A DNA stretch of 40,571 nt, taken from positions 1 through 40,571 of the forward strand of contig JAUWGF010000001.1 of the NCBI GenBank assembly GCA_030606515.1, read 5' to 3'. The DNA comes from Deltaproteobacteria bacterium. GTDB lineage: Bacteria > Desulfobacterota > Dissulfuribacteria > Dissulfuribacterales > UBA3076. Shown piece by piece: positions 2,312-25,165 of this stretch; positions within the stretch are counted from its first letter, which is position 1; each line of letters opens with the position of its first letter. The notes below the pieces were generated by a model, which was not told where the DNA came from, searched no databases, and worked only from the letters and a program-made list of their open reading frames with translations. The position numbers and the translations under genes are program-made.

Positions 2312-4117
2312 TTAGAATCTATTAAGTTCTTCTATCTTTTTTGCCTGGGCCTTTCTGTATTCCTTCAACTTCCTTGCAAGGTCCTGGTCTTCCAGTGCCA
2401 GGATCTGAAGTGCCAACAAGGCGGCATTTTTTGCCCCGGCTTCTCCTATTGCCATGGTTGCAACCGGGACACCAGGGGGCATCTGGGCAGTGGAAAGCAA
2501 GGCATCAAGTCCATTCAAAGCCGAACTGTCCACCGGCACCCCTATTACAGGAAGGATCGTATTAGCTGCCAGGCTGCCGGCCAGGTGTGCCGCCATTCCG
2601 GCGCCGGCTATCAAGACCTTTATTCCTCTGGTTTCTGCCTCCCTGGCATATGATGCAGTAAGTTCCGGGGAGCGATGGGCTGAAGCAACCTTCAACTCAC
2701 ATGCTATATCAAACTCATTCAGAATATCCCGGGCCGCTTCCATAACCTCCTTGTCACTGAGGCTTCCCATGACAATGCCTACCTTGGCAGAGCTGCCGGA
2801 ATGCGGGGAAACCGGCGTGCTGGTCGCACCGGACGTGTATCTGAGGGCCTTTTGACCAATATCCCTTCTATAATGCATCCCCTCCCAGGAGATTTGTCCA
2901 ACTGCTTCATATACAAGGTCTATTGCCTCTGAAACGGTATTCCCAAGTGCCGTAACCCCAAGGACTCTTCCGCCGGATGTGACGAATCGGTCTCCATCCT
3001 TGGCGGTCCCTGCGTGAAAAACCATTACGTCCTGCATCTCAGCCACTTTTTCAAGACCGTGGATGACCTTGCCTGTCTCATAGCTTCCAGGATAGCCTCC
3101 GGAGGCCAGGACAACGCAAATAGCAGCCCTTGGATCCCACTCAAGTTTGACTTCATTCAGCCTGCCTTCAATTGCTGCCTCAAATATCTCCATCAGGTCA
3201 GTGCGGAGTCGCATCAGGATCGGCTGGGCCTCAGGATCACCGAACCGGCAGTTAAATTCCAAGACCTCAAACATACCGTCTTTAATTATTAGGCCACCAT
3301 AAAGCACTCCCTGATAGGGCCTTTTTGCCCTTGCCATAGCTTCCACAGTGGGCCTCATAACCGTATCCATGATATCGTCAAACAGGCCACTGCTTACCAC
3401 CGGGGCTGGGGAGTAAGCACCCATACCGCCGGTATTAGGCCCCTGGTCATTATCAAATATGGGCTTATGGTCCTGGGAAGTGGCAAGAGGAAGGACAGTT
3501 GTTCCGTCGGTTATAGCCATGAAGGAGGCCTCTTCCCCGGTGAGAAATTCCTCTACTATCAGACGATTGCCCGCTTCACCAAAGGCCTTTTTGCAAAGAA
3601 TGAGATCTATTGCCTCCTCCGCCTCAGCCAGGGAATGAGCGAGCAACACCCCCTTGCCGGCTGCCAGCCCGTCTGCCTTTATTGCAATTGGCACTCCAAC
3701 TACGTTCTTGATATAATCAAAGGCGGCATCCGGCTCGGTAAAGACCTTGTAGGCCCCTGTTCGTATACCTGCCTCAGTGAGTAAGTCTTTTGAAAATACC
3801 TTACTTGCCTCGATCTCAGCAGCCGCTTTAGTGGGTCCGAATACTGCAAGTCCCTGTTCGTTGAATCTGTCTACCAGACCTTCAGCCAGAGGGGCTTCCG
3901 GGCCTACTAAGGTTATATCGATACCCTCCTTTTTAACAAATGATACAAGACCATTAATGTCAGAGACCTTTAAAGGTACACAGACGGCATGTTGACTTAT
4001 GCCGGCATTTCCGGGAGCACAGAATACTCTGGAAATTCTGGGACTGGACGCCAGCTTCCAGCAAAGAACGTGTTCGCGTCCTCCGGAACCCACGACTAAT
4101 ATTTTCTTCTTATCCAT
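2312..4117 (-). CDS. purD: Bifunctional PurD-PurE fusion (phosphoribosylamine-glycine ligase plus N5-CAIR mutase domain)
   Basis: The N-terminal roughly 425 aa are PurD-like ([15 protein letters not shown]-grasp region, ...[12 protein letters not shown]). A Ser/Thr/Pro linker ([18 protein letters not shown]) follows. The C-terminal region is PurE-like ([28 protein letters not shown]). The start is set at ATG 4117 (SD ggagaaggag), and the GTG-initiated extension to 4231 is rejected. Confidence 0.85.
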
Positions 4118-4160
4118 AATCTCCTTCTCCCCATGTTTATTCTCAGAACAAGGCAGGCTC

Positions 4161-4188
4161 AACCTACCATCTGATGTAAAGGTGTCAA
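4161..4188 (-). promoter_or_regulatory. Candidate sigma-70 promoter for purD-purE
   Basis: On the minus strand, TTGACA (4188..4183), then 16 nt, then TAGGTT (4166..4161), about 45 nt upstream of ATG 4117. This position argues against the longer ORF start. Confidence 0.3.
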
Positions 4189-4258
4189 CGCCTGTTCTGA
4201 TGATCCGATGCCTGATTTTCGAGACAGTCACAATCTACGTGGTATAATGCCTGGGTAA

Positions 4259-5693: not shown

Positions 5694-7298
5694 CTAATTG
5701 TTTCCTAATTGCAGATTAATAATAAACTTTGTGCCTTTATTTACCTCGCTCTCTACTTCAATAGATCCCTTATGTCTATCTATAATTAAATGTGCCAAGC
5801 TGAGACCAAGACCCGTCCCCTTTTCTGCGTCCTTTGTAGTGAAAAAAGGCTCAAATATTTTCAGTAACAAATCTTCAGGAATGCCCTCGCCGCTATCCTC
5901 AATTTCAACCACAGCCATCTTATCACCTATCTTAAAGTAATCATCCCCTCTCCTGCCTACTTTATTGTTTAACTTCGATGCTAACTTACAAAAGACATTT
6001 ACTTTAATCTCGCCTCTCTCTTGTATGGTATCGACAGCATTGTTCAATAGATTAACAACTACCTGCTGAAGCATGTTCTTGTCAGCTTTACATTTTACTG
6101 GTTCTTTTGGATAATTTCGGTTTATTTTTATTTTTTTCAAATTCTCACTACGCTCAACCAAGCTTATTGTGTTATCTAATAATTCACAAATATCTACAGA
6201 TTCAAATTTAAGTTCGGCCTTTCTTGAAAATTGTAGAATATCAACAATAATTTTGTTTGCCCTACCTACAGCCTGTTTTATGATTTTAATAGATCCTGCA
6301 CATTGTTCATCTTTCTCTGACAAAGTATTATCAAGATACTCTACACCCATCAAAATAATACCCAGGGGATTTCTAATTTGATGAGCAACTCCAGATGTCA
6401 AACGCCCTATAGCTGCCATTTTTTCATTCTGTATTAACTGATCATGGGTTTCCTTAAGTTCATTATATGCCTTTTTTAAATCCTGTTCTGCTTTCTTAGG
6501 CCCAGTAATATTTTTTGATATTACTGAAACAGCTATTACATTCTTAGTATCAGGTTCTTTAATTGGACCAAGCGTTTTCATAAACCATTTGTCATATTTT
6601 TTGCTGTAAGATTCATAGTCTGTGGTTGTACCAGTTTCAAAAACTCTATTTACATTCTTGGCAAAATTTTTCGTTTCTTCTGTTGCATGAAATGCGTCAA
6701 ATGTCTTGCCCAAAACTTGGCTCCTTAATAGGCCAAATTGAGACAACAACATATCGTTTACAAAAAGATATTTACACTCTTTATCTACTATGTAGATTAA
6801 ATCACTTGTAGATTCCACGAGAGAACGATATTTTTCCTCGGATTTTCGCACTTTCATTTCTTCTTTAACTTTTCCCTCGCTGATAAGTGCGATAACATAA
6901 GCTAATAATATGAAAACTCCCGCCCTCTCAATGGTTCCTACTATAAGAGTTCCAAGAGCAGAATATGCTAAATATATATGAAAACAACCTAAAAAAACTG
7001 CCAGCGGGATGACTTTTTTTCTATACCATATAGCTGTCAGTATAATTGGGATATAGAATATGTTGGTATATAGAATCTGTAAGCTGAAATAATTAAGGAG
7101 GGTATTAAACTCTTGAGCTGTGTAAACATCAGCATAATCAATTTTTGCTCTCGTAACAAAATTAAAGTAATAACCTCCTATAATACATAAAAATATTGTA
7201 AAAAGCAATATAATACTCCGACTCCCTCTGGATTTTGTAAATCCTTCCATCATGAATATTTTGGGTAAACGAAGTCCCTGCCGAGCACTTAAATTCAT
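5694..7298 (-). CDS. Membrane sensor histidine kinase (multi-TM N-terminus, PAS, HisKA, HATPase_c)
   Basis: H-box SGVAHQIRNPL, N-box VVNLLNNAVD, G-boxes EDSGEGIP and GTGLGLS. A PAS-like segment (YRSLVESTSDLIYIVDKECKYLFVN) and 5-6 hydrophobic helices sit at the N-terminus. The start may be the internal MM at codons 16-17. Confidence 0.85.
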   Translation of the reverse strand: MNLSARQGLRLPKIFMMEGFTKSRGSRSIILLFTIFLCIIGGYYFNFVTRAKIDYADVYTAQEFNTLLNYFSLQILYTNIFYIPIILTAIWYRKKVIPLAVFLGCFHIYLAYSALGTLIVGTIERAGVFILLAYVIALISEGKVKEEMKVRKSEEKYRSLVESTSDLIYIVDKECKYLFVNDMLLSQFGLLRSQVLGKTFDAFHATEETKNFAKNVNRVFETGTTTDYESYSKKYDKWFMKTLGPIKEPDTKNVIAVSVISKNITGPKKAEQDLKKAYNELKETHDQLIQNEKMAAIGRLTSGVAHQIRNPLGIILMGVEYLDNTLSEKDEQCAGSIKIIKQAVGRANKIIVDILQFSRKAELKFESVDICELLDNTISLVERSENLKKIKINRNYPKEPVKCKADKNMLQQVVVNLLNNAVDTIQERGEIKVNVFCKLASKLNNKVGRRGDDYFKIGDKMAVVEIEDSGEGIPEDLLLKIFEPFFTTKDAEKGTGLGLSLAHLIIDRHKGSIEVESEVNKGTKFIINLQLGNN

Positions 7299-7423
7299 TA
7301 TATTTGTGTTCCTCTTGTGGATTGGTTTATTATGAATGCTGCAAAGTTGCCGGGATGAATGTCAATCCCACAATTCATTTTCCTCATTCATTCCGCGATA
7401 CTCAATCGAAGAACCTCTTTTTC

Positions 7424-7450
7424 TTATCGAAAAATTTTATGGAATAGTTA
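7424..7450 (-). promoter_or_regulatory. Weak sigma-28-like promoter candidate upstream of the kinase
   Basis: Minus strand TAAC (7450..7447), N15, TTCGATAA (7431..7424), about 125 nt upstream of the kinase start. It has two mismatches to the GCCGATAA consensus. Confidence 0.2.
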
Positions 7451-7606
7451 AGAAATAAGAACACCTGAGGAGAATATTTTTAATTAACTTAAGCTGCGGT
7501 TTCGGGGTGGTTTTGGTATAATTTCTGGGTCTTGGGAATGAAACCCGAAAAAAGGCGACCGATTCAAAGGCAGATGTCGTGTAGAAATGGAATTTCAATA
7601 ATGGAA

Positions 7607-8332
7607 TTAATGACGACGAAGTAAAGGGCTTAGCCCCCAGATCCTGAGGCCCTTGTCTTTGAGCCCAATAACCAGCAATGTGAGCAGTTCAATAAAAAGG
7701 GGCTCAGGAGGCGATCTCAAAGGATCATTTTTCACAAGAATTATGTCACCAGGACCCACATGTGTCAGAATGCGCTCAACTGAAGTATTAAAAAGGACTC
7801 CCTCACGCCACCTGAGCTTAATGGATGGATTGACCACGAAAAGACCCAGCTCTCTTGCCATTTTTACCAGTCGAAGGTCCTTCCATCCATGAGGCGGCAT
7901 AAGAAAGCAGGCGTCCCTTCCCTGGATGTCGCCTGCCAATGTCAGGCAGGGCTTGAGCATGTGCCTTAATTCTATTTTATTTTGAAAAATAAGCGATCTG
8001 TAAGTCTCTCCATGAATCCCTATCTCAAAGGACTGCAGAAGACGCATGGCCCTGGGATTACTCCTGGCTCTCTTCCCTTCTATGAAAAATGTGGCTGGTA
8101 TCTCAAGCTCATGCAGTCGTTTACAAATGGGCTCTGTTAACGGGTTTGGGCTCCGGTCGAACACAAGACTTATTGCGGGTACATTTCTGGAACCATGGGT
8201 TAACACCCTGCCCCATAAGGTGGCCCTGAGGCAAAAGATCTCATATGCGCCTGCTGCCAGAGCACCTGCCCCTCCTGCGAGAATAAAGCCCTTTAAAGCA
8301 CTCTTGGAAAAAATCCCCGTTGATTTCAGCAC
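7607..8332 (-). CDS. Polysaccharide deacetylase (NodB-homology) family protein with a divergent catalytic motif
   Basis: AISLVFDRSPNPLTEPICKRLHELEIPATFFIEGKRARSNP...EIGIHGETY resembles the NodB fold. The usual TFDDG motif reads VFDRSP. Confidence 0.5.
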   Translation of the reverse strand: MLKSTGIFSKSALKGFILAGGAGALAAGAYEIFCLRATLWGRVLTHGSRNVPAISLVFDRSPNPLTEPICKRLHELEIPATFFIEGKRARSNPRAMRLLQSFEIGIHGETYRSLIFQNKIELRHMLKPCLTLAGDIQGRDACFLMPPHGWKDLRLVKMARELGLFVVNPSIKLRWREGVLFNTSVERILTHVGPGDIILVKNDPLRSPPEPLFIELLTLLVIGLKDKGLRIWGLSPLLRRH

Positions 8333-17701: not shown

Positions 17702-18742
17702 CTAAATGATCAGGTTTGGAATTTCCATTTCCCCATTTTGGAAAGCTCTGATGAAAGCATCGACGACTTTGGGATCAAAATCCTTTCCCGAACCTTTAAC
17801 GATGATTTCCTTGGCTTTAAATGGAGATACTGCCTTGCGGTAAGGACGATCGCTTACCAGGGCATCATATACATCTGCCACGGAGAGGACTTTAGCCTCT
17901 ATAGGGATCTTTTCCCCTTTGATCGGATGATAGCCTGATCCATCATACTTGTCGTGGTGAGCCAAAATGATAGGAATAATGTTGCCCAGGGGAGCTTCTA
18001 CTAAATCCAGAATATCAGCACCCAGTTCCACATGGTTTTTCATTGTTTCACGCTCTTTCTCGGTCAATTGCGCTGCCTTGTAAAGAATTTCCCGGCCGAT
18101 ATCGATTTTTCCAATGTCATGGAGCAAGGCAGCGGCACGAACCGTTTCAATTTGTTGAGGAGCGAGTCCGAGGTAGGTAGCGATCTTAGCTGAATAGATC
18201 GAAACGCGGTAACAATGGTTTTCGGTATACTTATCTTTGGAAATGAAATGGCGCAGAATCACCAGAAGACCCCGGTAGGTCTTTTGGAGTTCACGCATCT
18301 GTAGTGCCTGACGCTCATAGAGAGTACCCATTGAATATGCAATAATCACTAACATACTGGCCCAAGCCATGATTTCATACCATTGGCCGCTCACTGAATT
18401 GAATTGTTCCATCTCGTTGAACAGATCTGAGTTGAAGTGTAAAACAAGACCTACTAGTAAGATGCTGGCCACTGCAGTCAGAACGGCATGGCGACGTCCG
18501 AAAAAATAGGCGGAAAAAATGGTAGGAATGACGTATAGCTGCAGCAACATCTGTTGGGCGGTCAACAGATAATTCATGATGCCAATGATAGAAAACATGG
18601 ACAAGATCATCCACAGCTCTTTGTTCGCTTCCATAATCTGGCGCAACAATTTTGTCTTCCATCGCCGAAATTTGTCTGAAGTTAAACCGGGCGGTATAGT
18701 GTCGAGAATCAATTCTTCTCTGCTTTTAGCTTGCTCAGTCAT
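17702..18742 (-). CDS. Membrane-anchored HD-GYP-type phosphohydrolase (probable c-di-GMP phosphodiesterase), variant GYHP motif
   Basis: About 5 TM helices, then the HD domain (AALLHDIGKI) and HHDKYDGSGYHP in place of HHExxDGxGYP. ATG 18742 has SD agggggg. The alternative upstream ATG is at 18772. Confidence 0.8.
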   Translation of the reverse strand: MTEQAKSREELILDTIPPGLTSDKFRRWKTKLLRQIMEANKELWMILSMFSIIGIMNYLLTAQQMLLQLYVIPTIFSAYFFGRRHAVLTAVASILLVGLVLHFNSDLFNEMEQFNSVSGQWYEIMAWASMLVIIAYSMGTLYERQALQMRELQKTYRGLLVILRHFISKDKYTENHCYRVSIYSAKIATYLGLAPQQIETVRAAALLHDIGKIDIGREILYKAAQLTEKERETMKNHVELGADILDLVEAPLGNIIPIILAHHDKYDGSGYHPIKGEKIPIEAKVLSVADVYDALVSDRPYRKAVSPFKAKEIIVKGSGKDFDPKVVDAFIRAFQNGEMEIPNLII

Positions 18743-18817
18743 TTTAACCCCCCTGCCATTAACTTCGAGCATCCAATAAAAAAAATCCCATGAGACATTC
18801 TTTTTGACCTTAATTTG

Positions 18818-18844
18818 TTATCGACCATTAAGTTCAATTTCTTA
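18818..18844 (-). promoter_or_regulatory. Sigma-28 (FliA)-like promoter for the HD-GYP gene
   Basis: Minus strand TAAG (18844..18841), N15, GTCGATAA (18825..18818). The consensus I recall is TAAA-N15-GCCGATAA. Confidence 0.5.
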
Positions 18845-18849
18845 AAAAT

Positions 18850-18882
18850 GGAAGGTGGATACACGCTCATTCTGGAAAAAAC
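18850..18882 (+). pseudogene. 33-nt relic of an skp paralogue
   Basis: ggaaggtggatacacgctcattctggaaaaaac compared with skp 15551-15584 ggaaggtggatatacactcattctggaaaaaaac. Both substitutions are synonymous in the skp frame (tat->tac, aca->acg). Similarity ends abruptly on both sides. Confidence 0.55.
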
Positions 18883-18963
18883 GCGGAGTGCACTTGGATG
18901 TGTGAGCACTTTTAACAACGAGCAACGCAGCCATCGGACCAAAGACAGAATTCTGCATAAGCC

Positions 18964-19764
18964 TCAGGATTTTCCTGGTTCGGTCATCTTATCATCACCA
19001 ACAAGCTCGGGAAGCAGATCTACCAGTCTCAACCAGATCTGTTTCAATGGTCCCGGATCAAAACTATTGCTGCCGTAGCTTGTTGAAAGGGCCTCGACCA
19101 GTCTCTCTTCCCACTCGTCAAGAGCTGCCGCCACCTCACCGTAATCCATGTATTTTGCAGAGGCCCTTAGCCTTTTTATTGCATCCTGACTGGCAGACAA
19201 CCATTCCTCCTCGGGCCAGTCAGGCACATTGGCCAGAGGTTCGGATACCTCTTTTGAGAACAAAGGAGTAATTGCTCCATCCCTAGCCTTTATCGCATTC
19301 CGGGCCTGTCGATCCGGTAATCCCGAATCATGGCCGGGAGTTGCTTCGCGTGCGTCAGAATCGACTTTCTCCGACCGTGAATCAAAGAGTATGGCGTTCT
19401 GATCTTCAACATTGTCTAATGCACTGCTTGATTCCGCATTCTTCTCTGCTACTTCTTGCACCAGCTTCTGTAATCGATCCAGCCTTGAAAAAATCAGGTT
19501 AATAACATCTTCTGTAAAAACCAGACTACCCTTACGGGCCTTATCAAACAGATTTTCCATACTATGGGCAAGTGTGGCTATTTGTTCAAGGCCCACATGG
19601 TCCGCTGCACCTTTTATACTTTGCATATTACGAAAACATTCATCCAGAAAAGAAGAGTTGTGAGACTCCTGTCCTAATAGCAACAGGTTTAATTCCATCT
19701 CCTGGAGGTTTCCCTCGACTTCAACAACAAAATTTTGCAAAATTTCCTGATCAAACTGATTCAT
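18964..19764 (-). CDS. CheA-P1-like Hpt domain protein with Gln in place of the phospho-accepting His
   Basis: Residues 40-80 read LDECFRNMQSIKGAADHVGLEQIATLAHSMENLFDKARKG. This parallels CheA P1 FRAAHSIKGG...HLMENLLDEARRG (recalled). Codon 48 is CAA (19623..19621). The C-terminal roughly 150 aa are acidic and unrecognised. SD aggggat. Confidence 0.75.
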   Translation of the reverse strand: MNQFDQEILQNFVVEVEGNLQEMELNLLLLGQESHNSSFLDECFRNMQSIKGAADHVGLEQIATLAHSMENLFDKARKGSLVFTEDVINLIFSRLDRLQKLVQEVAEKNAESSSALDNVEDQNAILFDSRSEKVDSDAREATPGHDSGLPDRQARNAIKARDGAITPLFSKEVSEPLANVPDWPEEEWLSASQDAIKRLRASAKYMDYGEVAAALDEWEERLVEALSTSYGSNSFDPGPLKQIWLRLVDLLPELVGDDKMTEPGKS

Positions 19765-19817
19765 AGTATCCCCTGGCTCTCCCTGGAATCCAACACTTCA
19801 ATCTGGCTATAAGTTGT

Positions 19818-19844
19818 TTATCGACCGCTGAGTTTAATGTCTTG
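19818..19844 (-). promoter_or_regulatory. Sigma-28-like promoter for the Hpt-like gene
   Basis: Minus strand CAAG (19844..19841), N15, GTCGATAA (19825..19818), 54 nt upstream of the ATG at 19764. Confidence 0.5.
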
Positions 19845-19890
19845 ATGCAATTTCTGCGATCAGAAAAAACATGCCCGCCACAGAAATCTT

Positions 19891-19917
19891 TAACATATGA
19901 AATGATTTGGTCGATAA
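19891..19917 (+). promoter_or_regulatory. Sigma-28-like promoter for the mglB-mglA operon
   Basis: Plus strand TAAC (19891-19894), N15, GTCGATAA (19910-19917), 91 nt upstream of the mglB TTG at 20008. Confidence 0.5.
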
Positions 19918-20007
19918 AGGCTTTAGAGTATTTAATACGGGAGTCTCATTTGAGTGTTTATGCGTCTTTGATACAGAATGGCCTTTTCTTTTTGGGGAGT
20001 TTAAGCC

Positions 20008-20406
20008 TTGGCTGATTTAGTGCTGACCGCCTCAGTCCTGGAAGAAACCAGAATACAGATAGAAAACACCCTTATTAAGGCAGGCGTTAATAATGTGCTC
20101 CTGGTTGATGAAGCGGGCAATATAGTAGTTGCTTGCGGGCACAAAATCTACAACATGGACACTACATCTCTTGCTGCGCTGGCAGCAGCTAACTTTGGCG
20201 CCAGTTCACAGATTGCAAAGTTGATAGGAGAGGACGACTTTGCACTCCTGTTTCACAAAGGGAAAAAAGACAGCATACACGTTGCACGAATAGGCACTGA
20301 TTTGATCCTGGTAACAATTTTCGGAGACAATGTTTCACTGGGCTTGATCAGGCTGAGAGTAGCACAATTGGCAAAAACTATAGAAAAGACATTTGGCCAA
20401 AAATAA
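20008..20406 (+). CDS. mglB: MglB, a Roadblock/LC7-fold GTPase-activating protein
   Basis: NVLLVDEAGNIV, DTTSLAALAAANFGASSQIAKLIGEDDF, FHKGKKDS, SLGLIRLR all closely parallel Myxococcus MglB as I recall it. TTG start with SD ggggag 8 nt upstream. Confidence 0.85.
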   Translation: MADLVLTASVLEETRIQIENTLIKAGVNNVLLVDEAGNIVVACGHKIYNMDTTSLAALAAANFGASSQIAKLIGEDDFALLFHKGKKDSIHVARIGTDLILVTIFGDNVSLGLIRLRVAQLAKTIEKTFGQK

Positions 20407-20413
20407 TTAAAAT

Positions 20414-21031
20414 ATGGCGCTAATAAATCTCAGCAAAAGGGAAATATGCTGCAAGATAGTCTACTACGGTCCCGGACGATGCGGGAAGACTACGAATTTG
20501 CTCTATATATATAATGCCATGAATAATAAAGCCCGTGGCAAAATGTTGACCATTGAGACAAAAGGAGACAGAACGCTTTTTTTTGACCTCCTTCCTTTAA
20601 ATCTGGGGAAAATAAATGGCTTTAGTATAAAAATCCAGCTTTACACCGTACCTGGTCAGACAATTTATGAAGCAACCAGGAGACTGGTTCTTAGGGGTGT
20701 GGATGGTCTGGTCTTTGTTGCTGACTATCTTAAGGTACGTCATGAAAAAAACATAGGAAGCCTCCAAGATCTGCACCGCAATCTCCTTGAGCACAATCTA
20801 ACTCTGGAAGAAATCCCGATTATTCTTCAATTTAACAAATGTGACTTAGTGCCGACACCCATACCCACGCTGACTAAAGAAGAGCTTGAAACAGAGCTAA
20901 ACAGAGAACTTAAGACAAAAATTTTTGAAGCAGCAGCTACTAAAGGCACAGGGGTCTTTGAAACCCTGAAAGAAATAAGCAAAAGGACCGTTCACTATGT
21001 GGCAACAAAGCATCTTTTAACAAATCACTGA
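20414..21031 (+). CDS. mglA: MglA, a Ras-like polarity/motility GTPase
   Basis: KIVYYGPGRCGKTTNLLYIY (P-loop), GDRTLFFD (intrinsic Arg), YTVPGQ (catalytic Gln), FNKCDL, ATKGTGVFETL. It starts 7 nt downstream of mglB. Confidence 0.9.
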   Translation: MALINLSKREICCKIVYYGPGRCGKTTNLLYIYNAMNNKARGKMLTIETKGDRTLFFDLLPLNLGKINGFSIKIQLYTVPGQTIYEATRRLVLRGVDGLVFVADYLKVRHEKNIGSLQDLHRNLLEHNLTLEEIPIILQFNKCDLVPTPIPTLTKEELETELNRELKTKIFEAAATKGTGVFETLKEISKRTVHYVATKHLLTNH

Positions 21032-21084
21032 GGAAATACTCTCAGACTTGTTATTGAAATAAAAAATACTCAAGGAGAACAGCC

Positions 21085-22611
21085 ATGGATCAGACACAAA
21101 AAATCCCTGATCCCAAGAACTTCACTGAAAACCTAGAAAGTACTATTGACGAACTATTTAGTGCATCACGACAGATAGAAATCGACCCCTTAACTAATGA
21201 AGTGAAGGATTTGTCGCAAGACAAAACAGATCAAGGAACGTCCTTTCAGGTTGTAGACCAGGGAGAAAAGCATCCGGAAGAAATCCAGATCTCAGATACC
21301 ATAGAGATGGAAGCTCCTGCTCAACAAATAGATATTACCACTGACGAAAAGATATTGGAATTAGATTCAGGGCCGGAGCTGGAGCCTGAAGAGAAAGAGA
21401 CTGAGGCTGTCAATCTGGAACAACAGTTCAGCCAACTCAATCAGCTGTTGTTGACCCTGGAGTGGGAGGTCACTCAACCACACGTAGTATCAGCCAAAAA
21501 CCTGATAGAGACAATCCGGAAAAATCCAAAGATAGAGGCAGACAAAAATCTCCACGAACTGTTCAATCTTATAATAAGGATCCTTGAAGGGATGGCGGAC
21601 AATCCTGAAAAAGTGCCCACTTCCGGGCCCGAAGCCCTGCAGAAAGGCCTTGACAGTTTAAAAAACCTTGTTTGGAACGAGGAACAGGACCCAAAGGCTA
21701 AAGAGGAACTCTTGAGATCCGCCAAGAAAGAGCTTGAATCAGCCATAGACATGGCAGTGCCTGAGGTTGCCCACGAAGTGTCCGAGGAGGCGGTTTCAGA
21801 ACGCCTTGTTGAGGATGTTAATGATCTTGAACCAGTGCTTGAAGATGCAGTCAAATTCCATATCAAAGTCCTTGATGACTGTATAGGTTATATTTTACCA
21901 GTTGAAAAGCTCCTTGCCCGGACTCCGGGGATGGAAAAGCTACATCATTTTCAGCAAAATGTTAAAAGCAGGCTTGAAAAACAAAAGAAAATATTGGAAA
22001 AGGCCTTAACCGGCGATTACGAGCCATCAGTTGATGTGCGTGATTATGCTGCTCAACAAACCGAAGACATCACCATAGAAATTGATAAAAAAGAAGAAAC
22101 ACCCTCAGTGACCATATCCTGCCCGTGGTATGAACTTGTAATTGCCCAATGGGACCAGAAGCAAGTGGCATTTGTCCCTGAAGATGTAGCATTTGCCGGG
22201 ACTGCTCCCTGGCGGGCCAAGAAAGGCATTAATAAGCTGGAAACCTTTAAATTAAAGAAGCTCAAGACCTGGCCATGGACAAAGCTTCAGCCATTGATGC
22301 AAGGGGAATTGTCGAATCAGGAAGAATCACAGCTTATAAAACTCGAGTTTCCGGTATTGCAAAAATCGATTTCATCTTTCAGCTACTCTCAGCCCCCAGA
22401 CAATCCGACTGTATCAGTCTTATGCCGTGGGGATAAAGGACTGGTCCTCATGCTGGACACCCCTTTAGAGACCATTTCTGTAACACCTGAGTGTTCATGG
22501 GAACCGTCCGCAGAAAGTAATGGACCATGGGTCGGCAACCTGAAGATAGAAAACAAACAAATATCCGTGGCAACGCTGGAAAGTCTCTTAAATACACTGA
22601 CAAATGAATAA
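21085..22611 (+). CDS. Orphan acidic protein (508 aa), function unknown; possible degenerate CheW-like C-terminal domain
   Basis: Strong SD aaggaga. The first roughly 120 aa are rich in E, D and Q. A helical middle follows (LLLTLEWEVTQPHVVSAKNLIETI...). The beta-rich C-terminus (YELVIAQWDQKQVAFVPEDVAF ... VSVLCRGDKGLVLMLDTPLETISV ... VGNLKIENKQISVATLESLL) is loosely CheW-like. Its stop overlaps the next start. Confidence 0.6.
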   Translation: MDQTQKIPDPKNFTENLESTIDELFSASRQIEIDPLTNEVKDLSQDKTDQGTSFQVVDQGEKHPEEIQISDTIEMEAPAQQIDITTDEKILELDSGPELEPEEKETEAVNLEQQFSQLNQLLLTLEWEVTQPHVVSAKNLIETIRKNPKIEADKNLHELFNLIIRILEGMADNPEKVPTSGPEALQKGLDSLKNLVWNEEQDPKAKEELLRSAKKELESAIDMAVPEVAHEVSEEAVSERLVEDVNDLEPVLEDAVKFHIKVLDDCIGYILPVEKLLARTPGMEKLHHFQQNVKSRLEKQKKILEKALTGDYEPSVDVRDYAAQQTEDITIEIDKKEETPSVTISCPWYELVIAQWDQKQVAFVPEDVAFAGTAPWRAKKGINKLETFKLKKLKTWPWTKLQPLMQGELSNQEESQLIKLEFPVLQKSISSFSYSQPPDNPTVSVLCRGDKGLVLMLDTPLETISVTPECSWEPSAESNGPWVGNLKIENKQISVATLESLLNTLTNE

Positions 22612-24967
22612 TCTCGATTCAACTTCGGACAATTTAATTAAAACCAGGTTGGCAGAAGTCGATCTTTACTGTAGTCAAGGTCTTAATAAAGAAGCTCGTC
22701 TTATTTGTTTAGAGCTTCTGAAACTGACAGGTGATAAGTCCCATCCCCTCTATACTGAAGTAGAGTCCCGTCTGAAAGGACTTCAGTTTAATGGCATAGA
22801 AACAGTCCCGTCAGGAAAAACGGATTTCACCACCAGCCCTGAAGATCTTAAACCTGAAGACCTTAAAGAATATCAGGACAATCAATTCAACAGTTGTATA
22901 GGTCTGATAGAAGCGGGCTTTCATTCAGAGGCCATAGAGGAGCTTAAAGCCTTACTTGTAGCAGGATACAGGCCGGGAATAATTCGAGCGAAAATCGGAG
23001 AATCATACCTGCGGCTGGATACGCCCTTTGAGGCCCTTGAGTATTTACAGGAGGCGATTGAGGACACGCAACTATCCAAGGATGAACGTCTGGATGTACT
23101 ATATCAACTGGTACTTACCCATGAACGAACAGGCGCGGTGCCCAAGGCCATTGAGGCTCTGGAACAAATCATCCGCCTTGATCCCGCCTTTAGAAACGCC
23201 AAACAGAGGCTTGAGGAACTTTCCCAAACAGCGCAGAAATATGGCCGGTTCTATTATCTGATTCGTAATCAGTTCCTCTCTGAAGAACAACTCAAAAGGA
23301 CCAAAGAACTGGCCAAACAGGGAAAAAAATCCATAGAAAGTATCCTGCTAAACCAGGTTGGCATAGACAAGACAGAGCTTGGCCGCTCCCTCAGCGAATA
23401 CTATCGATGCCCCTTTGTGGAATTTGACGAACTGGAAGTAGGAACCACACCATCTTGCGTGCGCGGTATCAAAGAACATTTTTTCAGGACCAATTCCTGT
23501 GCCCCGATTCGCGAAAAATTAGGGACCCTTATAGTTGCACTGGACAACCCCCATGACTTAGCAAAGATAGACAATATAAGAAGGGTCCTTAAGGCCAAAG
23601 GCTTTCAATTTGCAGTTTCCCTAAAGGAAGATATCAACAGATTCATAGACTATTTCTATGGGAAATATTCCACAGGAGGATCTGATGATGACGTGTTTGA
23701 GCAATTGGAAGTTGTTGATGAGGATACGGAACTCGAGGAAGAGGATAATGGCTTAGCATCAGATGCTGATAGCGTAGTAGTACAGATAGCCAATAAAACC
23801 ATAGAGGATGCCTATCATCGCAGGGCCTCTGATATTCACATTGAATCCCTGGCAGGCAAACGGGGGGCCCTGGTCCGCTTCAGGATCGATGGCGACTGTA
23901 TGCGTTATCAGACCGTTCCGTATAACTACAAGCGGGCCATGATTTCCAGAATCAAGATCATGTCCAACCTTGACATTGCCGAGAAACGCCTGCCTCAAGA
24001 CGGAAAAATAAAGTTCAGGACTCGCTCTGGTAAAACCCTGGAATTACGTGTAGCCACACTTCCCACAACTGAAGGCAACGAAGATATCGTACTCAGGCTA
24101 CTGGGCTCTTCCGAGGCCATGCCGATTGATCGCATAGGGCTCCTTGATCAAAACCTGGAGCAGCTAAAACAGCTTTTGCAATTGCCTTATGGGCTTATAT
24201 TGGCAGTTGGTCCTACCGGATCAGGAAAGACAACTACCCTGCATGCTGCACTTGGCTATATAAATCGGCCTGAGAAAAAAATCTGGACAGCGGAAGATCC
24301 TGTAGAAATCATGCAGGATGGATTGCGCCAGGTGCAGGTGAAACCCGGTATCGGCCTGACTTTTGCCCGGATTCTCAGGGCCTTTTTAAGGGCAGATCCG
24401 GATGTGATAATGATCGGCGAAACTCGAGACGAAGAAACTGCCACAACCGCAATAGAAGCATCCCTGACAGGTCACCTGGTCTTTTCAACCCTCCATACCA
24501 ATTCCGCCCCTGAGACAGTTACAAGGCTTTTAGGAATGGGAATGGACCCATTCAACTTTGCTGACGCCCTCTTGGGGGTCTTGGCACAGAGGCTTGTAAA
24601 AAGACTTTGTCCCAAGTGCCGCGAGGCCTATCAGCCTGATGACCACGAGAAAAAACATATTTTACACGAGTACGGGCATCATCCAACTCAACCCTTAGAG
24701 TTATCAGACCTAAATGAAATAACACTTTATCGGCCAAAGGGCTGCCAACATTGCAACAGGACCGGCTTCAGAGGCAGGCTTGCAATCCACGAACTACTGG
24801 TGTCAGATGACGGTCTCAAAAAGCTCATTCAGGAAAAACGCCCCGTGGGAGAGATACGGGAACATGCCATGAAGCATGGAATGTCGATCCTGAAACAGGA
24901 CGGCATACAAAAGGTCTTAAGGGGAGATACAGATCTGAAACAGATTAGGGCAGCCTGCATAAGGTAA
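22604..24967 (+). CDS. TPR::T2SSE_N::PilB/GspE-family secretion ATPase fusion
   Basis: Residues 1 to about 205 are TPR-like (e.g. GFHSEAIEELKALL, AIEALEQIIRLDPAFRNAKQRLEEL). Residues about 215-350 are a GspE-N-type domain (LGRSLSEYYRCPFVEFD). The ATPase core has Walker A GPTGSGKTTT, TAEDPVE, Walker B DPDVIMIGETRD, His box TGHLVFSTLHTN, and the tetra-Cys motif CPKC...CQHC. Confidence 0.85.
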   Translation: MNNLDSTSDNLIKTRLAEVDLYCSQGLNKEARLICLELLKLTGDKSHPLYTEVESRLKGLQFNGIETVPSGKTDFTTSPEDLKPEDLKEYQDNQFNSCIGLIEAGFHSEAIEELKALLVAGYRPGIIRAKIGESYLRLDTPFEALEYLQEAIEDTQLSKDERLDVLYQLVLTHERTGAVPKAIEALEQIIRLDPAFRNAKQRLEELSQTAQKYGRFYYLIRNQFLSEEQLKRTKELAKQGKKSIESILLNQVGIDKTELGRSLSEYYRCPFVEFDELEVGTTPSCVRGIKEHFFRTNSCAPIREKLGTLIVALDNPHDLAKIDNIRRVLKAKGFQFAVSLKEDINRFIDYFYGKYSTGGSDDDVFEQLEVVDEDTELEEEDNGLASDADSVVVQIANKTIEDAYHRRASDIHIESLAGKRGALVRFRIDGDCMRYQTVPYNYKRAMISRIKIMSNLDIAEKRLPQDGKIKFRTRSGKTLELRVATLPTTEGNEDIVLRLLGSSEAMPIDRIGLLDQNLEQLKQLLQLPYGLILAVGPTGSGKTTTLHAALGYINRPEKKIWTAEDPVEIMQDGLRQVQVKPGIGLTFARILRAFLRADPDVIMIGETRDEETATTAIEASLTGHLVFSTLHTNSAPETVTRLLGMGMDPFNFADALLGVLAQRLVKRLCPKCREAYQPDDHEKKHILHEYGHHPTQPLELSDLNEITLYRPKGCQHCNRTGFRGRLAIHELLVSDDGLKKLIQEKRPVGEIREHAMKHGMSILKQDGIQKVLRGDTDLKQIRAACIR

Positions 24968-25165
24968 GGTAAGGTAAGGTAAACGTTCACAGGTTACGTT
25001 TATGCAGTACGGAATTGTTTTAAAAGATGAACGTCGAATATCGAACATCGAACGTCCAACGTCGAATAAAAAACGAATATCCAATACCGAACATTCAACG
25101 GCTATTTCTGTTTCTTCATCTTTTCCCATTCAACATTCGATGTTGGATGTTCGATGTTCATTAAA
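24963..25165 (-). repeat. Palindromic heptamer-armed cassette, copy C (empty: the arms are joined and the ORF deleted), preceded by (GGTAA)x4
   Basis: (GGTAA)x4 spans 24963-24982. gtaaacgttcacaggttac (24979-24997) is the exact reverse complement of 1637-1655. 25027-25100 is the reverse complement of copy A's right arm region (about 1554-1628). 25103-25165 is the reverse complement of copy B's left arm. The internal ORF is reduced to MKKQK*. Confidence 0.75.

Follow-up and report, generated by a model that had tools for sequence, protein, structure and literature searches.

The closest known system to the locus presented here is, by analogy, the MglA/MglB-SgmX-PilB pathway of Myxococcus xanthus, and the two appear to have a common logic of a GTPase, a tetratricopeptide repeat (TPR) adaptor and an extension ATPase. 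In M. xanthus, the three C-terminal TPRs of SgmX are bound by MglA-GTP, and polar PilB depends on SgmX; direct contact between SgmX and PilB was not detected (PMC11580455). The locus lies in a DNA stretch of 40,571 nucleotides (nt), referred to as the window (positions 1 to 40,571 of contig JAUWGF010000001.1, assembly GCA_030606515.1), from a deltaproteobacterium of the Dissulfuribacterales, a relative of Seep-SRB2, which reduces sulfate in partnership with methane-oxidising archaea. It is a cassette of four genes: mglB, mglA, an unannotated open reading frame (ORF3) and the gene of a PilB-type ATPase that carries an N-terminal TPR module, here called the N-module. With moderate confidence, we read it as a conserved signalling-motor cassette, in which MglA would gate the ATPase via the TPR module, either directly or through ORF3.

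The likeness to the M. xanthus pathway covers several components. Both have a true MglA and a Roadblock GTPase-activating protein (GAP), a TPR element between the GTPase and a PilB-type ATPase, an extra helper protein that is not a TPR protein (the M. xanthus pathway also includes SopA and FrzS) and an upstream chemosensory system, which is Frz in M. xanthus and a CheA cluster in most lineages here. However, the M. xanthus components are separate proteins from scattered loci and SgmX has 14 TPRs, while the cassette has a module of four TPRs covalently joined to the ATPase and keeps its parts in synteny. The cassette also includes the new family ORF3, without detected homology to described proteins (the SopA and SgmX sequences were not compared), and its TPR adaptor is found on kinases as well. 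The GTPase-TPR-motor logic is thus already known; what appears to be new, from this comparison, is a TPR adaptor fused to a PilB-type ATPase and syntenic with MglBA and the ORF3 family.

In Bdellovibrio bacteriovorus, MglA reportedly binds the TPR protein Bd2492. In that system (MglA - Bd2492 - RomR), as here, MglA is paired with a TPR partner, and it concerns the pole that bears type IV pili; however, there is no MglB, the TPR protein is free-standing, and ATPase fusion, ORF3-like gene and conserved operon are all lacking. The cyanobacterial Tax/Pix systems resemble the cassette in their regulators, as a CheA cluster with a PATAN-REC regulator adjoins the cassette in most lineages and PATAN genes flank its variants. 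The target of the Tax/Pix regulator is the N-terminal half of a PilB-type ATPase (PilB1), and PATAN regulators of Synechocystis bind this half of PilB1 and also PilC (bioRxiv 10.1101/2021.06.11.447907). Tax/Pix have, however, no MglA/MglB, ORF3 or TPR-fused PilB; the PATAN regulator of the cassette carries a CheB-like domain in addition, and the cluster is absent from the window's clade. ATPases of the MshE/PilB2 type have, like the cassette ATPase, an MshEN/N1 domain before the T2SSE core and genes related to cyclic di-GMP (c-di-GMP) nearby (HD-GYP-like, HDOD, PilZ), but both RLGxx(L/V/I)(L/V/I)xxG...Q motifs are replaced in the cassette ATPase.

Fixed four-gene operons with an MglA-like GTPase are also known from actinobacteria, where the conservons (CvnA-D) encode a histidine kinase, an MglB-like protein, an unknown protein and the GTPase (PMC4316618). 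They differ from the cassette in their MglA group, in having a membrane histidine kinase and not a PilB ATPase, in gene order and in the lack of a TPR module. The 2014 survey of prokaryotic Ras-like GTPases describes variable neighbourhoods for MglA groups 1, 4 and 5, with only occasional PATAN neighbours and no PilB linkage noted (PMC4316618). No published account of the cassette was found in the literature searched, which is incomplete, and within that limit the original prediction, made from the window's sequence, was right not to recognise the unit as a described system.

Conservation of the cassette

The four genes of the window are:

20008-20406, forward strand: mglB, TTG start, 132 amino acids (aa), Roadblock/LC7 protein, presumed GAP of MglA
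20414-21031, forward strand: mglA, 205 aa, MglA-type Ras-like GTPase
21085-22611, forward strand: ORF3, 508 aa, scaffold-like, unannotated family
22604-24967, forward strand: ATPase gene, 787 aa, N-terminal TPR module and PilB-type ATPase

Read from the sequence, a GGGGAG Shine-Dalgarno sequence stands ahead of the TTG start of mglB, and 7 nt lie between the mglB stop (20406) and the ATG of mglA (20414). The spacer between mglA and ORF3 is 53 nt long and bears AAGGAGA ahead of the ORF3 ATG at 21085, and the ORF3 stop and the ATPase start share ATGAATAA (22604-22611). The ORF list and this reading of the junctions agree with the four same-strand ORFs and the operon-like spacing that had been predicted.

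MglB matches the Pfam family Robl_LC7 (PF03259) at 9.5e-15, with 54.6 bits against a cutoff of 23, which confirms the Roadblock core. It falls short of the MglB equivalog NF052242 (55.4 bits, cutoff 200), a model built around Thermus-type MglB, and on sequence it is presumed to be the GAP of MglA. MglA is 52 % identical to M. xanthus MglA and aligns to its structures (6hjh, 5ymx) at 1.8e-57, with 198 bits over residues 1-192 for 6hjh, and to T. thermophilus MglA (3t12) at 1e-55. The GTPase motifs listed in the original prediction are all found in the window protein and in the family alignment: the P-loop GPGRCGKT, the intrinsic Arg finger DRTLFFD, LYTVPGQ, with Thr for the Asp of DxxGQ and with the catalytic Gln, and NKCD. 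Across 58 family sequences they are kept in at least 95 %, except for the x of NKxD. The second ORF encodes a genuine MglA.

The conservation of the gene order was surveyed with one genome per species. The scan returned 53 ORF3 loci, all in Desulfobacterota, the carriers being Seep-SRB2 metagenome-assembled genomes (MAGs), Dissulfuribacterales, Desulfobulbia and several MAGs labelled Thermodesulfatator; Seep-SRB2 is itself a genus of Dissulfuribacterales (PMC10553843). ORF3 identity across these 53 species-level genomes is 23-85 %. The ORF3 of the window is 100 % identical in three NCBI MAGs and 78 % identical to that of the E20 Seep-SRB2.

ORFs were called in each locus and searched with the seed proteins, and loci are counted where the sequence extends far enough. 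An ATPase with the N-module comes after ORF3 in 44/44 loci, MglA is ahead of ORF3 in 49/49, and MglB is ahead of MglA in 46 of the 47. The median gaps are 3 nt between MglB and MglA, 45 nt between MglA and ORF3 and 4 nt between ORF3 and the ATPase; as the ORF starts of the survey are crude (first start codon), these gap sizes are approximate. The converse search, seeded by the N-module, finds ORF3 directly upstream in all of the metagenome loci that have upstream sequence (32/32). The same gene order in 53 genomes whose ORF3 proteins are only 23-85 % identical is an arrangement far beyond chance, and the synteny is thus conserved in relatives, seen from the ORF3 side as well as from the N-module side. 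Clearly, mglB, mglA, orf3 and the ATPase gene always occur together, in one order and with operon-like spacing.

The surroundings of the cassette vary. In a Desulfobulbia-type variant, represented by the survey loci L007/L050, L053, L057 and L058 from Desulfobulbia and Desulfobacterota M19, a dynamin-like GTPase gene lies divergently 5' of mglB, and PilZ and PATAN-DUF8082 genes lie 3' of the ATPase gene (downstream sequence exists only in L007/L050 and L057). In the E20 Seep-SRB2 MAG (L012 14173-19253, PQXE01000024.1), a second ATPase of the GspE/PilB type, 545 aa long and with 598 bits to the GspE model, is encoded directly 3' of the cassette. It is followed by an MshL/PilQ-like secretin and an IS4 transposase, an adjacency that is seen neither in the window nor in the other loci.

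The ATPase and its TPR module

Three parts can be separated in the ATPase:

22604-23248, forward strand: N-module (aa 1-215), with one TPR-like hairpin (L.E..LY..QGL), a variable linker and three TPRs, in this order
23249-23662, forward strand: MshEN / PilB N1 domain, with non-canonical c-di-GMP motifs
23765-24946, forward strand: T2SSE ATPase core (N2 and C-terminal domain), Pfam T2SSE 5.7e-121

Residues 218-781 align to the full-length PilB of M. xanthus (3jc8, residues 8-557) at 6.7e-114, and the ATPase also aligns end to end with Geobacter PilB; the structures 5tsg and 6olj are matched as well. As residues 218-781 span a full-length PilB, the protein consists of a complete PilB-type ATPase and about 215 extra N-terminal residues. 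The N1(MshEN)-N2-C-terminal domain architecture is present, with Walker A, Walker B, the His box and the tetra-Cys Zn site, all of which are kept in the 18/18 orthologues displayed. At the motif positions, conservation across 49 orthologues reaches 90 % or more, the exception being the second Cys pair (GC..C), which four of them lack. Among the database relatives, the best 120 are without exception full-length fusions, 770-800 aa long, and bear only generic names (type II secretion system/type IV pilus, T2SS/T4P, ATPase). The structure-sequence alignment thus agrees with the proposed hexameric secretion-type ATPase with an N-terminal fusion, an intact PilB-type core lying downstream of the N-module. 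Its best NCBIfam match is PilB, at a score under the curated cutoff (TIGR02538, 502.5 vs 675.65), and the GspE cutoff is missed too (TIGR02533, 484.7 vs 630.25).

From the alignment of residues 218-781 with the full-length PilB proteins of M. xanthus and Geobacter, and from the NCBIfam match, it could be argued that this ATPase is the ordinary PilB of a distant type IVa pilus cluster, that the TPRs and mglBA are a lineage-specific decoration and that MglA is dispensable. The generic T2SS/T4P labels of the family in the databases would fit, and type IV pilus assembly genes are reported in Seep-SRB2 genomes (PMC5947290). However, an ordinary PilB is hard to reconcile with the strict bidirectional synteny with MglB-MglA-ORF3, which holds even at 23 % ORF3 identity, and its score is under the PilB equivalog cutoff. 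A second ATPase of the GspE/PilB type, with an adjoining secretin, is encoded in at least one Seep-SRB2 genome (L012). Further, the N-module is shared with the kinases of sister cassettes (see below), which argues that the module belongs to the GTPase unit and not to PilB. We consider this explanation unlikely.

The ATPase might also power another machine, MSHA-like, T2SS-like or some other type IV filament or secretion system, so that the cassette would control secretion or the assembly of a surface structure. The PilB and GspE models score nearly equally, both under their cutoffs, the N1 domain is of the MshEN type, and the cassette in L012 abuts a GspE-like ATPase and an MshL/PilQ-like secretin. 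In addition, Seep-SRB2 cells form close consortia, for which filaments between cells seem to matter more than motility (PMC5947290). On the other hand, the N1-N2-C-terminal domain architecture and the best structural and sequence matches are of the PilB type, and the adjacency in L012 runs into an IS4 transposase and is confined to that locus. The PilZ and PATAN genes of the Desulfobulbia variant and a pilin-like gene in the sister locus L062 would be independent pointers to type IV pili. In most related loci no pilT, pilC, pilM-Q or pilin genes are found within 7-10 kb, the exceptions being L012 and L062. We doubt that the machine is a different one, and continue with a PilB-type motor that MglA would gate.

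The MshEN domain is matched by Pfam PF05157 at residues 267-353 (3.4e-13, 49.8 bits, cutoff 23.1). The c-di-GMP motif of MshEN is, as Wang et al. 2016 are said to have described it, a tandem of RLGxx(L/V/I)(L/V/I)xxG(L/V/I)(L/V/I)xxxxLxxxLxxQ. In the cassette ATPase, both canonical motifs are replaced, by GRFYYL... and KKSIE...; GRFY and KKSI stand where M. xanthus PilB has RLGE and TRIG, and the terminal Gln of the second motif is a Tyr. Of the 49 orthologues, at least 90 % share GRFY and at least 60 % share KK.IE. As family-specific residues replace both motifs, canonical c-di-GMP binding is doubtful, and canonical c-di-GMP control of the ATPase via MshEN was judged unlikely.

The TPR nature of the N-module is evident at the level of the family. 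In the full-length window ATPase all Pfam TPR matches are under the gathering score, while the isolated N-module passes TPR_14 (26.6 vs 23.5). The orthologous N-modules match TPR_2, TPR_12, TPR_6 and TPR_14 in 22/22 cases, with a best E-value of 1.8e-15, and the family profile aligns to PDB consensus TPR structures at 3.9e-29. The claim that the N-terminal 200 or so residues are TPRs is hence borne out by the orthologues, the full-length window protein alone being sub-threshold.

Remote ORF3 relatives, taken from a search of representative sequences, reveal sister cassettes in which MglB, MglA and an ORF3-like protein are followed by a Ser/Thr kinase. They are present in L062, L063, L065 and L066, and partial in L064 and L067. 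The N-termini of these kinases align to the N-module profile of the ATPase (hhalign probability 97 %, E ~1e-10, ~155 columns), and the match takes in the L.E..LY..QGL opening. A search with the N-module by hmmsearch detects the gene after the ORF3-like gene in 6/6 sister loci, at 5e-10 to 3e-23, and a kinase domain is confirmed in four of the six. The gene 5' of mglB is a PATAN-pentapeptide gene in L063 and L066, and the pilin-like gene in L062.

From these matches, the N-module looks like a portable adaptor, exchangeable between a PilB ATPase and a Ser/Thr kinase. As MglB-MglA-ORF3 pairs with the N-module fused to either enzyme, the TPR module may be a docking element for the GTPase unit, and its portability is the strongest, though indirect, argument for such a role. 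The masABK operon of M. xanthus was considered as a counterpart of ORF3 and kinase and was dropped, since MasA and MasB are membrane proteins or lipoproteins and masABK lies divergently to mglBA; the sole parallel left is an MglA-associated kinase adjoining mglBA.

One close relative of the window has a broken ATPase gene. In L001 (9520-12311) / L074, from the MAG contig NKAJ01001628.1 (GCA_002919985.1), it is split into three ORFs of 108, 56 and 609 aa. The ORF3 of this MAG is identical to that of the window, and the ATPase gene is intact (787 aa) in two other MAGs. The split could be an assembly or frameshift error, or pseudogenisation.

ORF3 and the divergent chemosensory cluster

ORF3 has no match in Pfam, NCBIfam or PADLOC, nor has its family profile against PDB sequences, and Pfam gave nothing usable on 10 remote relatives. 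A word-indexed search finds about 80 homologues, and a profile search of 1.84 billion representatives finds 342 ORF3 clusters at E<=1e-3 and 82 at <=1e-30. Its gene always sits between mglA and the gene of the N-module protein. We take ORF3 to be an obligatory member of the cassette and a new protein family. The original prediction had treated the 508-aa ORF as a mere passenger, which does not hold, as it is by synteny the tightest-linked partner of the ATPase; it may be the real bridge between the GTPase and the ATPase. Three regions are distinguished:

21112-21210, forward strand: N-terminal conserved motif (aa 10-42), a helix and then ...IEIDPLT...
21415-22011, forward strand: helical core (aa 111-309), a bundle (LTLEWEV...) and then a hairpin (ILPVE.LLA.TPGMEKLH.F)
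22117-22608, forward strand: C-terminal domain (aa 345-508), predicted CheW / CheA-P5-like fold

The AlphaFold2 (AF2) model of ORF3 has a mean predicted local distance difference test (pLDDT) score of 72, with 80-93 in the folded parts. Along the chain, the model shows in turn a helix-strand motif at the N-terminus, a linker that is acidic and disordered, a bundle of helices, a long hairpin of helices and a beta domain at the C-terminus. The N-terminal motif is modelled as a helix (10-26) and two short strands, and L24, I31, E32, I33, P35 and T37 are invariant in 32 sequences. The model of the helical core as a sub-domain has a pLDDT of 85. For the helical part, Foldseek ranks CheA P1/Hpt first in two models, with E-values of only 0.2-1.4, and the core contains no conserved His; an Hpt-like middle region is therefore suggestive only.

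For the C-terminal domain, where pLDDT is ~80-93 over most of the length, the top 16 Foldseek matches in the PDB are all CheW or CheA P5 (probability 1.00, E 3.8e-4 to 6.5e-2). The target-normalised TM-scores are 0.52-0.63 for CheW chains and 0.23-0.63 overall. ORF3 as a relative of CheA/CheW at the sequence level was rejected, with hhalign probabilities of 0.5 % (CheA) and 4 % (CheW) and no Pfam or NCBIfam match. As sequence profiles find no such relation, the predicted CheW-like fold of the C-terminus is a fold-level assignment only.

The position of ORF3 raises the possibility that ORF3, and not the TPR module, is the effector of MglA, so that the GTPase would act on ORF3 and ORF3 on the TPR-fused enzyme, with no direct MglA-TPR contact. 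Its gene is inserted between mglA and the N-module gene without exception, the presence of ORF3 co-varies with that of the N-module for either type of effector, and in M. xanthus a non-TPR partner, SopA, works with the TPR protein SgmX to localise PilB (PMC11580455). The overlap of the ORF3 stop with the ATPase start in the window, together with the 4-nt median gap in the family, suggests translational coupling and a stoichiometric complex. The JGI metagenome protein P0070 (319 aa) is an apparent in-frame fusion of a 5'-truncated MglA to ORF3 with internal deletions, as would be expected of contacting proteins; however, being truncated and internally deleted, it is weak evidence for an MglA-ORF3 contact and may be a real fusion or an artefact. 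Further, the known MglA effectors include TPR proteins, SgmX among them. ORF3 as the effector is in our view possible without being probable.

It can also be speculated that MglB-MglA-ORF3 is a portable GTPase triad, in which ORF3 is a kinase-less scaffold that plugs a chemosensory array into interchangeable TPR-docked enzymes, the PilB ATPase and the Ser/Thr kinase. ORF3 would then possibly be derived from CheA/CheW, with a P1-like bundle, the helical hairpin and a P5/CheW-like domain. We put this forward tentatively.

Next to the cassette, most lineages have a chemosensory cluster. This fixed Che cluster lies divergently 5' of mglB in 22/31 loci with enough upstream sequence, and contains genes for an HDOD-HD protein, two REC-CheB-like proteins, a PATAN-REC-CheB-like protein, usually a single REC protein, and CheA. 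Its make-up is unusual for a chemosensory system: in L004 (3824-8735) and at the corresponding place in about 30 loci there are three paralogous REC-CheB-like genes, one of them with PATAN, and an HDOD-HD gene, CheR is not detected, and methyl-accepting chemotaxis protein (MCP) and CheW genes are usually absent nearby. MCP and CheW genes are found 3' of the ATPase gene in three genome-derived loci (L005, L020 and L044).

In the window, profile scans find neither the CheA kinase core (P3-P4-P5) nor a receiver protein. The corresponding region contains:

17702-18772, reverse strand: HD-GYP-like (HD_5) membrane-anchored protein, 356 aa; HD_5 2.4e-30, HD 5.9e-24, weak MASE1
18964-19764, reverse strand: Hpt-only protein, 266 aa; Pfam Hpt (PF01627) 2.1e-13, 50.7 bits, cutoff 24.6
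19765-20007, no strand: divergent intergenic region from the Hpt stub to mglB, 243 bp, presumed promoter region by position only

The Hpt-only protein aligns to the CheA of L004 with 176 bits. Its phospho-His is a Gln in 8/8 copies of the Seep-SRB2 clade (FRNMQSIKG), while the His is kept in 14/14 module CheAs (FRNMHSIKG; FRGVHSIKG in L004). From these alignments, the 266-aa Hpt stub is evidently a remnant of CheA P1. The HD-GYP-like gene is the outer one of the divergent pair and adjoins the Hpt stub in L002, L003, L012, L016 and L052; its product gives no cross-match to the HDOD-HD protein that occupies the same position in other lineages. The window locus is thus, judged by its gene content, a reduced Seep-SRB2-type cassette that appears to have lost the phosphorelay and to be left with the Hpt stub and the HD-GYP-like protein. 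The original prediction had left these Hpt and HD genes (17702-19764) unconnected to the cassette, although in relatives they correspond to a full CheA-based cluster.

Transcription signals add little. A sigma-70 consensus scan of the divergent intergenic region (19765-20007) gave nothing exceeding chance, and as promoter and terminator consensus matches were about as frequent as expected from shuffled sequence, such scans are uninformative on the transcription units. Directly 3' of the mglA stop (21028-21045, forward strand) is a weak hairpin, no stronger than chance matches of the scan. Its stem has 6 bp and ACTTGTTATT comes after it; a possible effect is the attenuation of read-through into ORF3. 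At the other end of the cassette, within 24960-25161, (TAAGG) x4.6 runs across the ATPase stop codon and is followed by:

25027-25161, no strand: imperfect palindrome made of 7-nt repeats where the ATPase and LigT genes converge, with inverted arms of 25-41 nt

This palindrome is built of (GAACGTC) x5.4 and inverted (TTCGATG) x3.4, has an RNA fold z of -3.6 and overlaps the 3' end of LigT. It may be a putative bidirectional terminator or an element similar to repetitive extragenic palindromic (REP) sequences.

Beyond the locus, the Pfam-matching ORFs scanned are all housekeeping, with a few short ORFs that have no match. They include CbiK, PurD-PurE, MutS, an amidase, OmpA, OmpH, transketolase, LigT and CinA, as well as PgpA, LarC, a NadB-like protein, a 931-aa TPR protein, DnaJ, MoaC and DksA. 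The purine-biosynthesis ORF (2312-4231, reverse strand, 639 aa) is a fusion of PurD, with its GARS N, A and C domains, and PurE (AIR carboxylase). A cobalamin riboswitch (RF00174) is found at 95-280 on the forward strand (120 bits, E 9e-30), directly 5' of the CbiK cobalt chelatase gene (420-1307). The G+C content is 36 % at 6001-8000, compared to 41-50 % in the remaining 2-kb bins; this dip spans the 5' part of a PAS histidine kinase gene (5694-7298, reverse strand) and the intergenic region before a polysaccharide deacetylase gene. A reading of the region as a defence system was rejected, PADLOC having given only two sub-threshold P-loop matches.

Proposed mechanism and its meaning

We suggest that MglA-GTP would recruit or activate the ATPase via the fused TPR module, and that MglB would switch MglA off. 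The contact could be direct, as that of MglA-GTP with the C-terminal TPRs of SgmX, or it could go through ORF3. As a scaffold, ORF3 would link the unit by its CheW-like domain to a chemosensory kinase or array where one exists, and the PATAN regulator of the Che cluster would plausibly address the N-terminal half of the ATPase. The most likely output would be a gate, spatial or temporal, on the extension of a type IV pilus or of a related type IV filament; the structural genes of the filament would lie elsewhere in the genome. Seep-SRB2 genomes contain genes for type IV pilus assembly, and the expression of pilA is high in E20 consortia (PMC5947290). In the window's clade, where the phosphorelay input appears to be lost, the GTPase switch would be the main controller. 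The compact unit of GTPase, TPR and ATPase that was originally predicted is therefore right as to the conserved cassette and the fusion of the TPRs to the ATPase, but it understates the system: ORF3 is obligatory, a Che cluster is present in relatives, and at least one viable wiring exists besides a direct contact of MglA with the TPRs.

Several points weigh against this mechanism. Each of its functional steps is inferred from synteny and analogy. A Pfam scan of the ORFs finds no pilin, PilC/GspF, PilMNOPQ or secretin gene in the 40.6-kb window, as had been noted from the sequence. The ATPase misses the curated cutoffs of both PilB and GspE, its canonical MshEN motifs are replaced, and its gene is split in NKAJ01001628.1 despite the identical ORF3. 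The likeness of ORF3 to CheW in the C-terminus and to Hpt in the middle region is a matter of predicted fold. Finally, as the Che input is gone in the window's clade, a role in chemosensory coupling is weaker for this copy.

In M. xanthus, the way in which MglA-GTP and SgmX activate the PilB motor is an open question, and no direct contact of SgmX with PilB was detected there (PMC11580455). The cassette is a minimal four-protein set that could be reconstituted for structural and biochemical tests of the mechanism by which MglA would act on the motor. That the N-module occurs on a motor ATPase as well as on a Ser/Thr kinase hints that Ras-like GTPases of bacteria may reach their effectors by a common route. 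If the portable triad is true, it would be a previously unrecognised class of bacterial GTPase-effector coupling, beyond a fused variant of the M. xanthus system. In the consortia of Seep-SRB2 with methane-oxidising archaea, filaments between cells that resemble pili are discussed as one element of the syntrophic contact, and a putative dedicated regulator of filament assembly that appears to have lost its chemosensory input in the window's clade may therefore matter ecologically.

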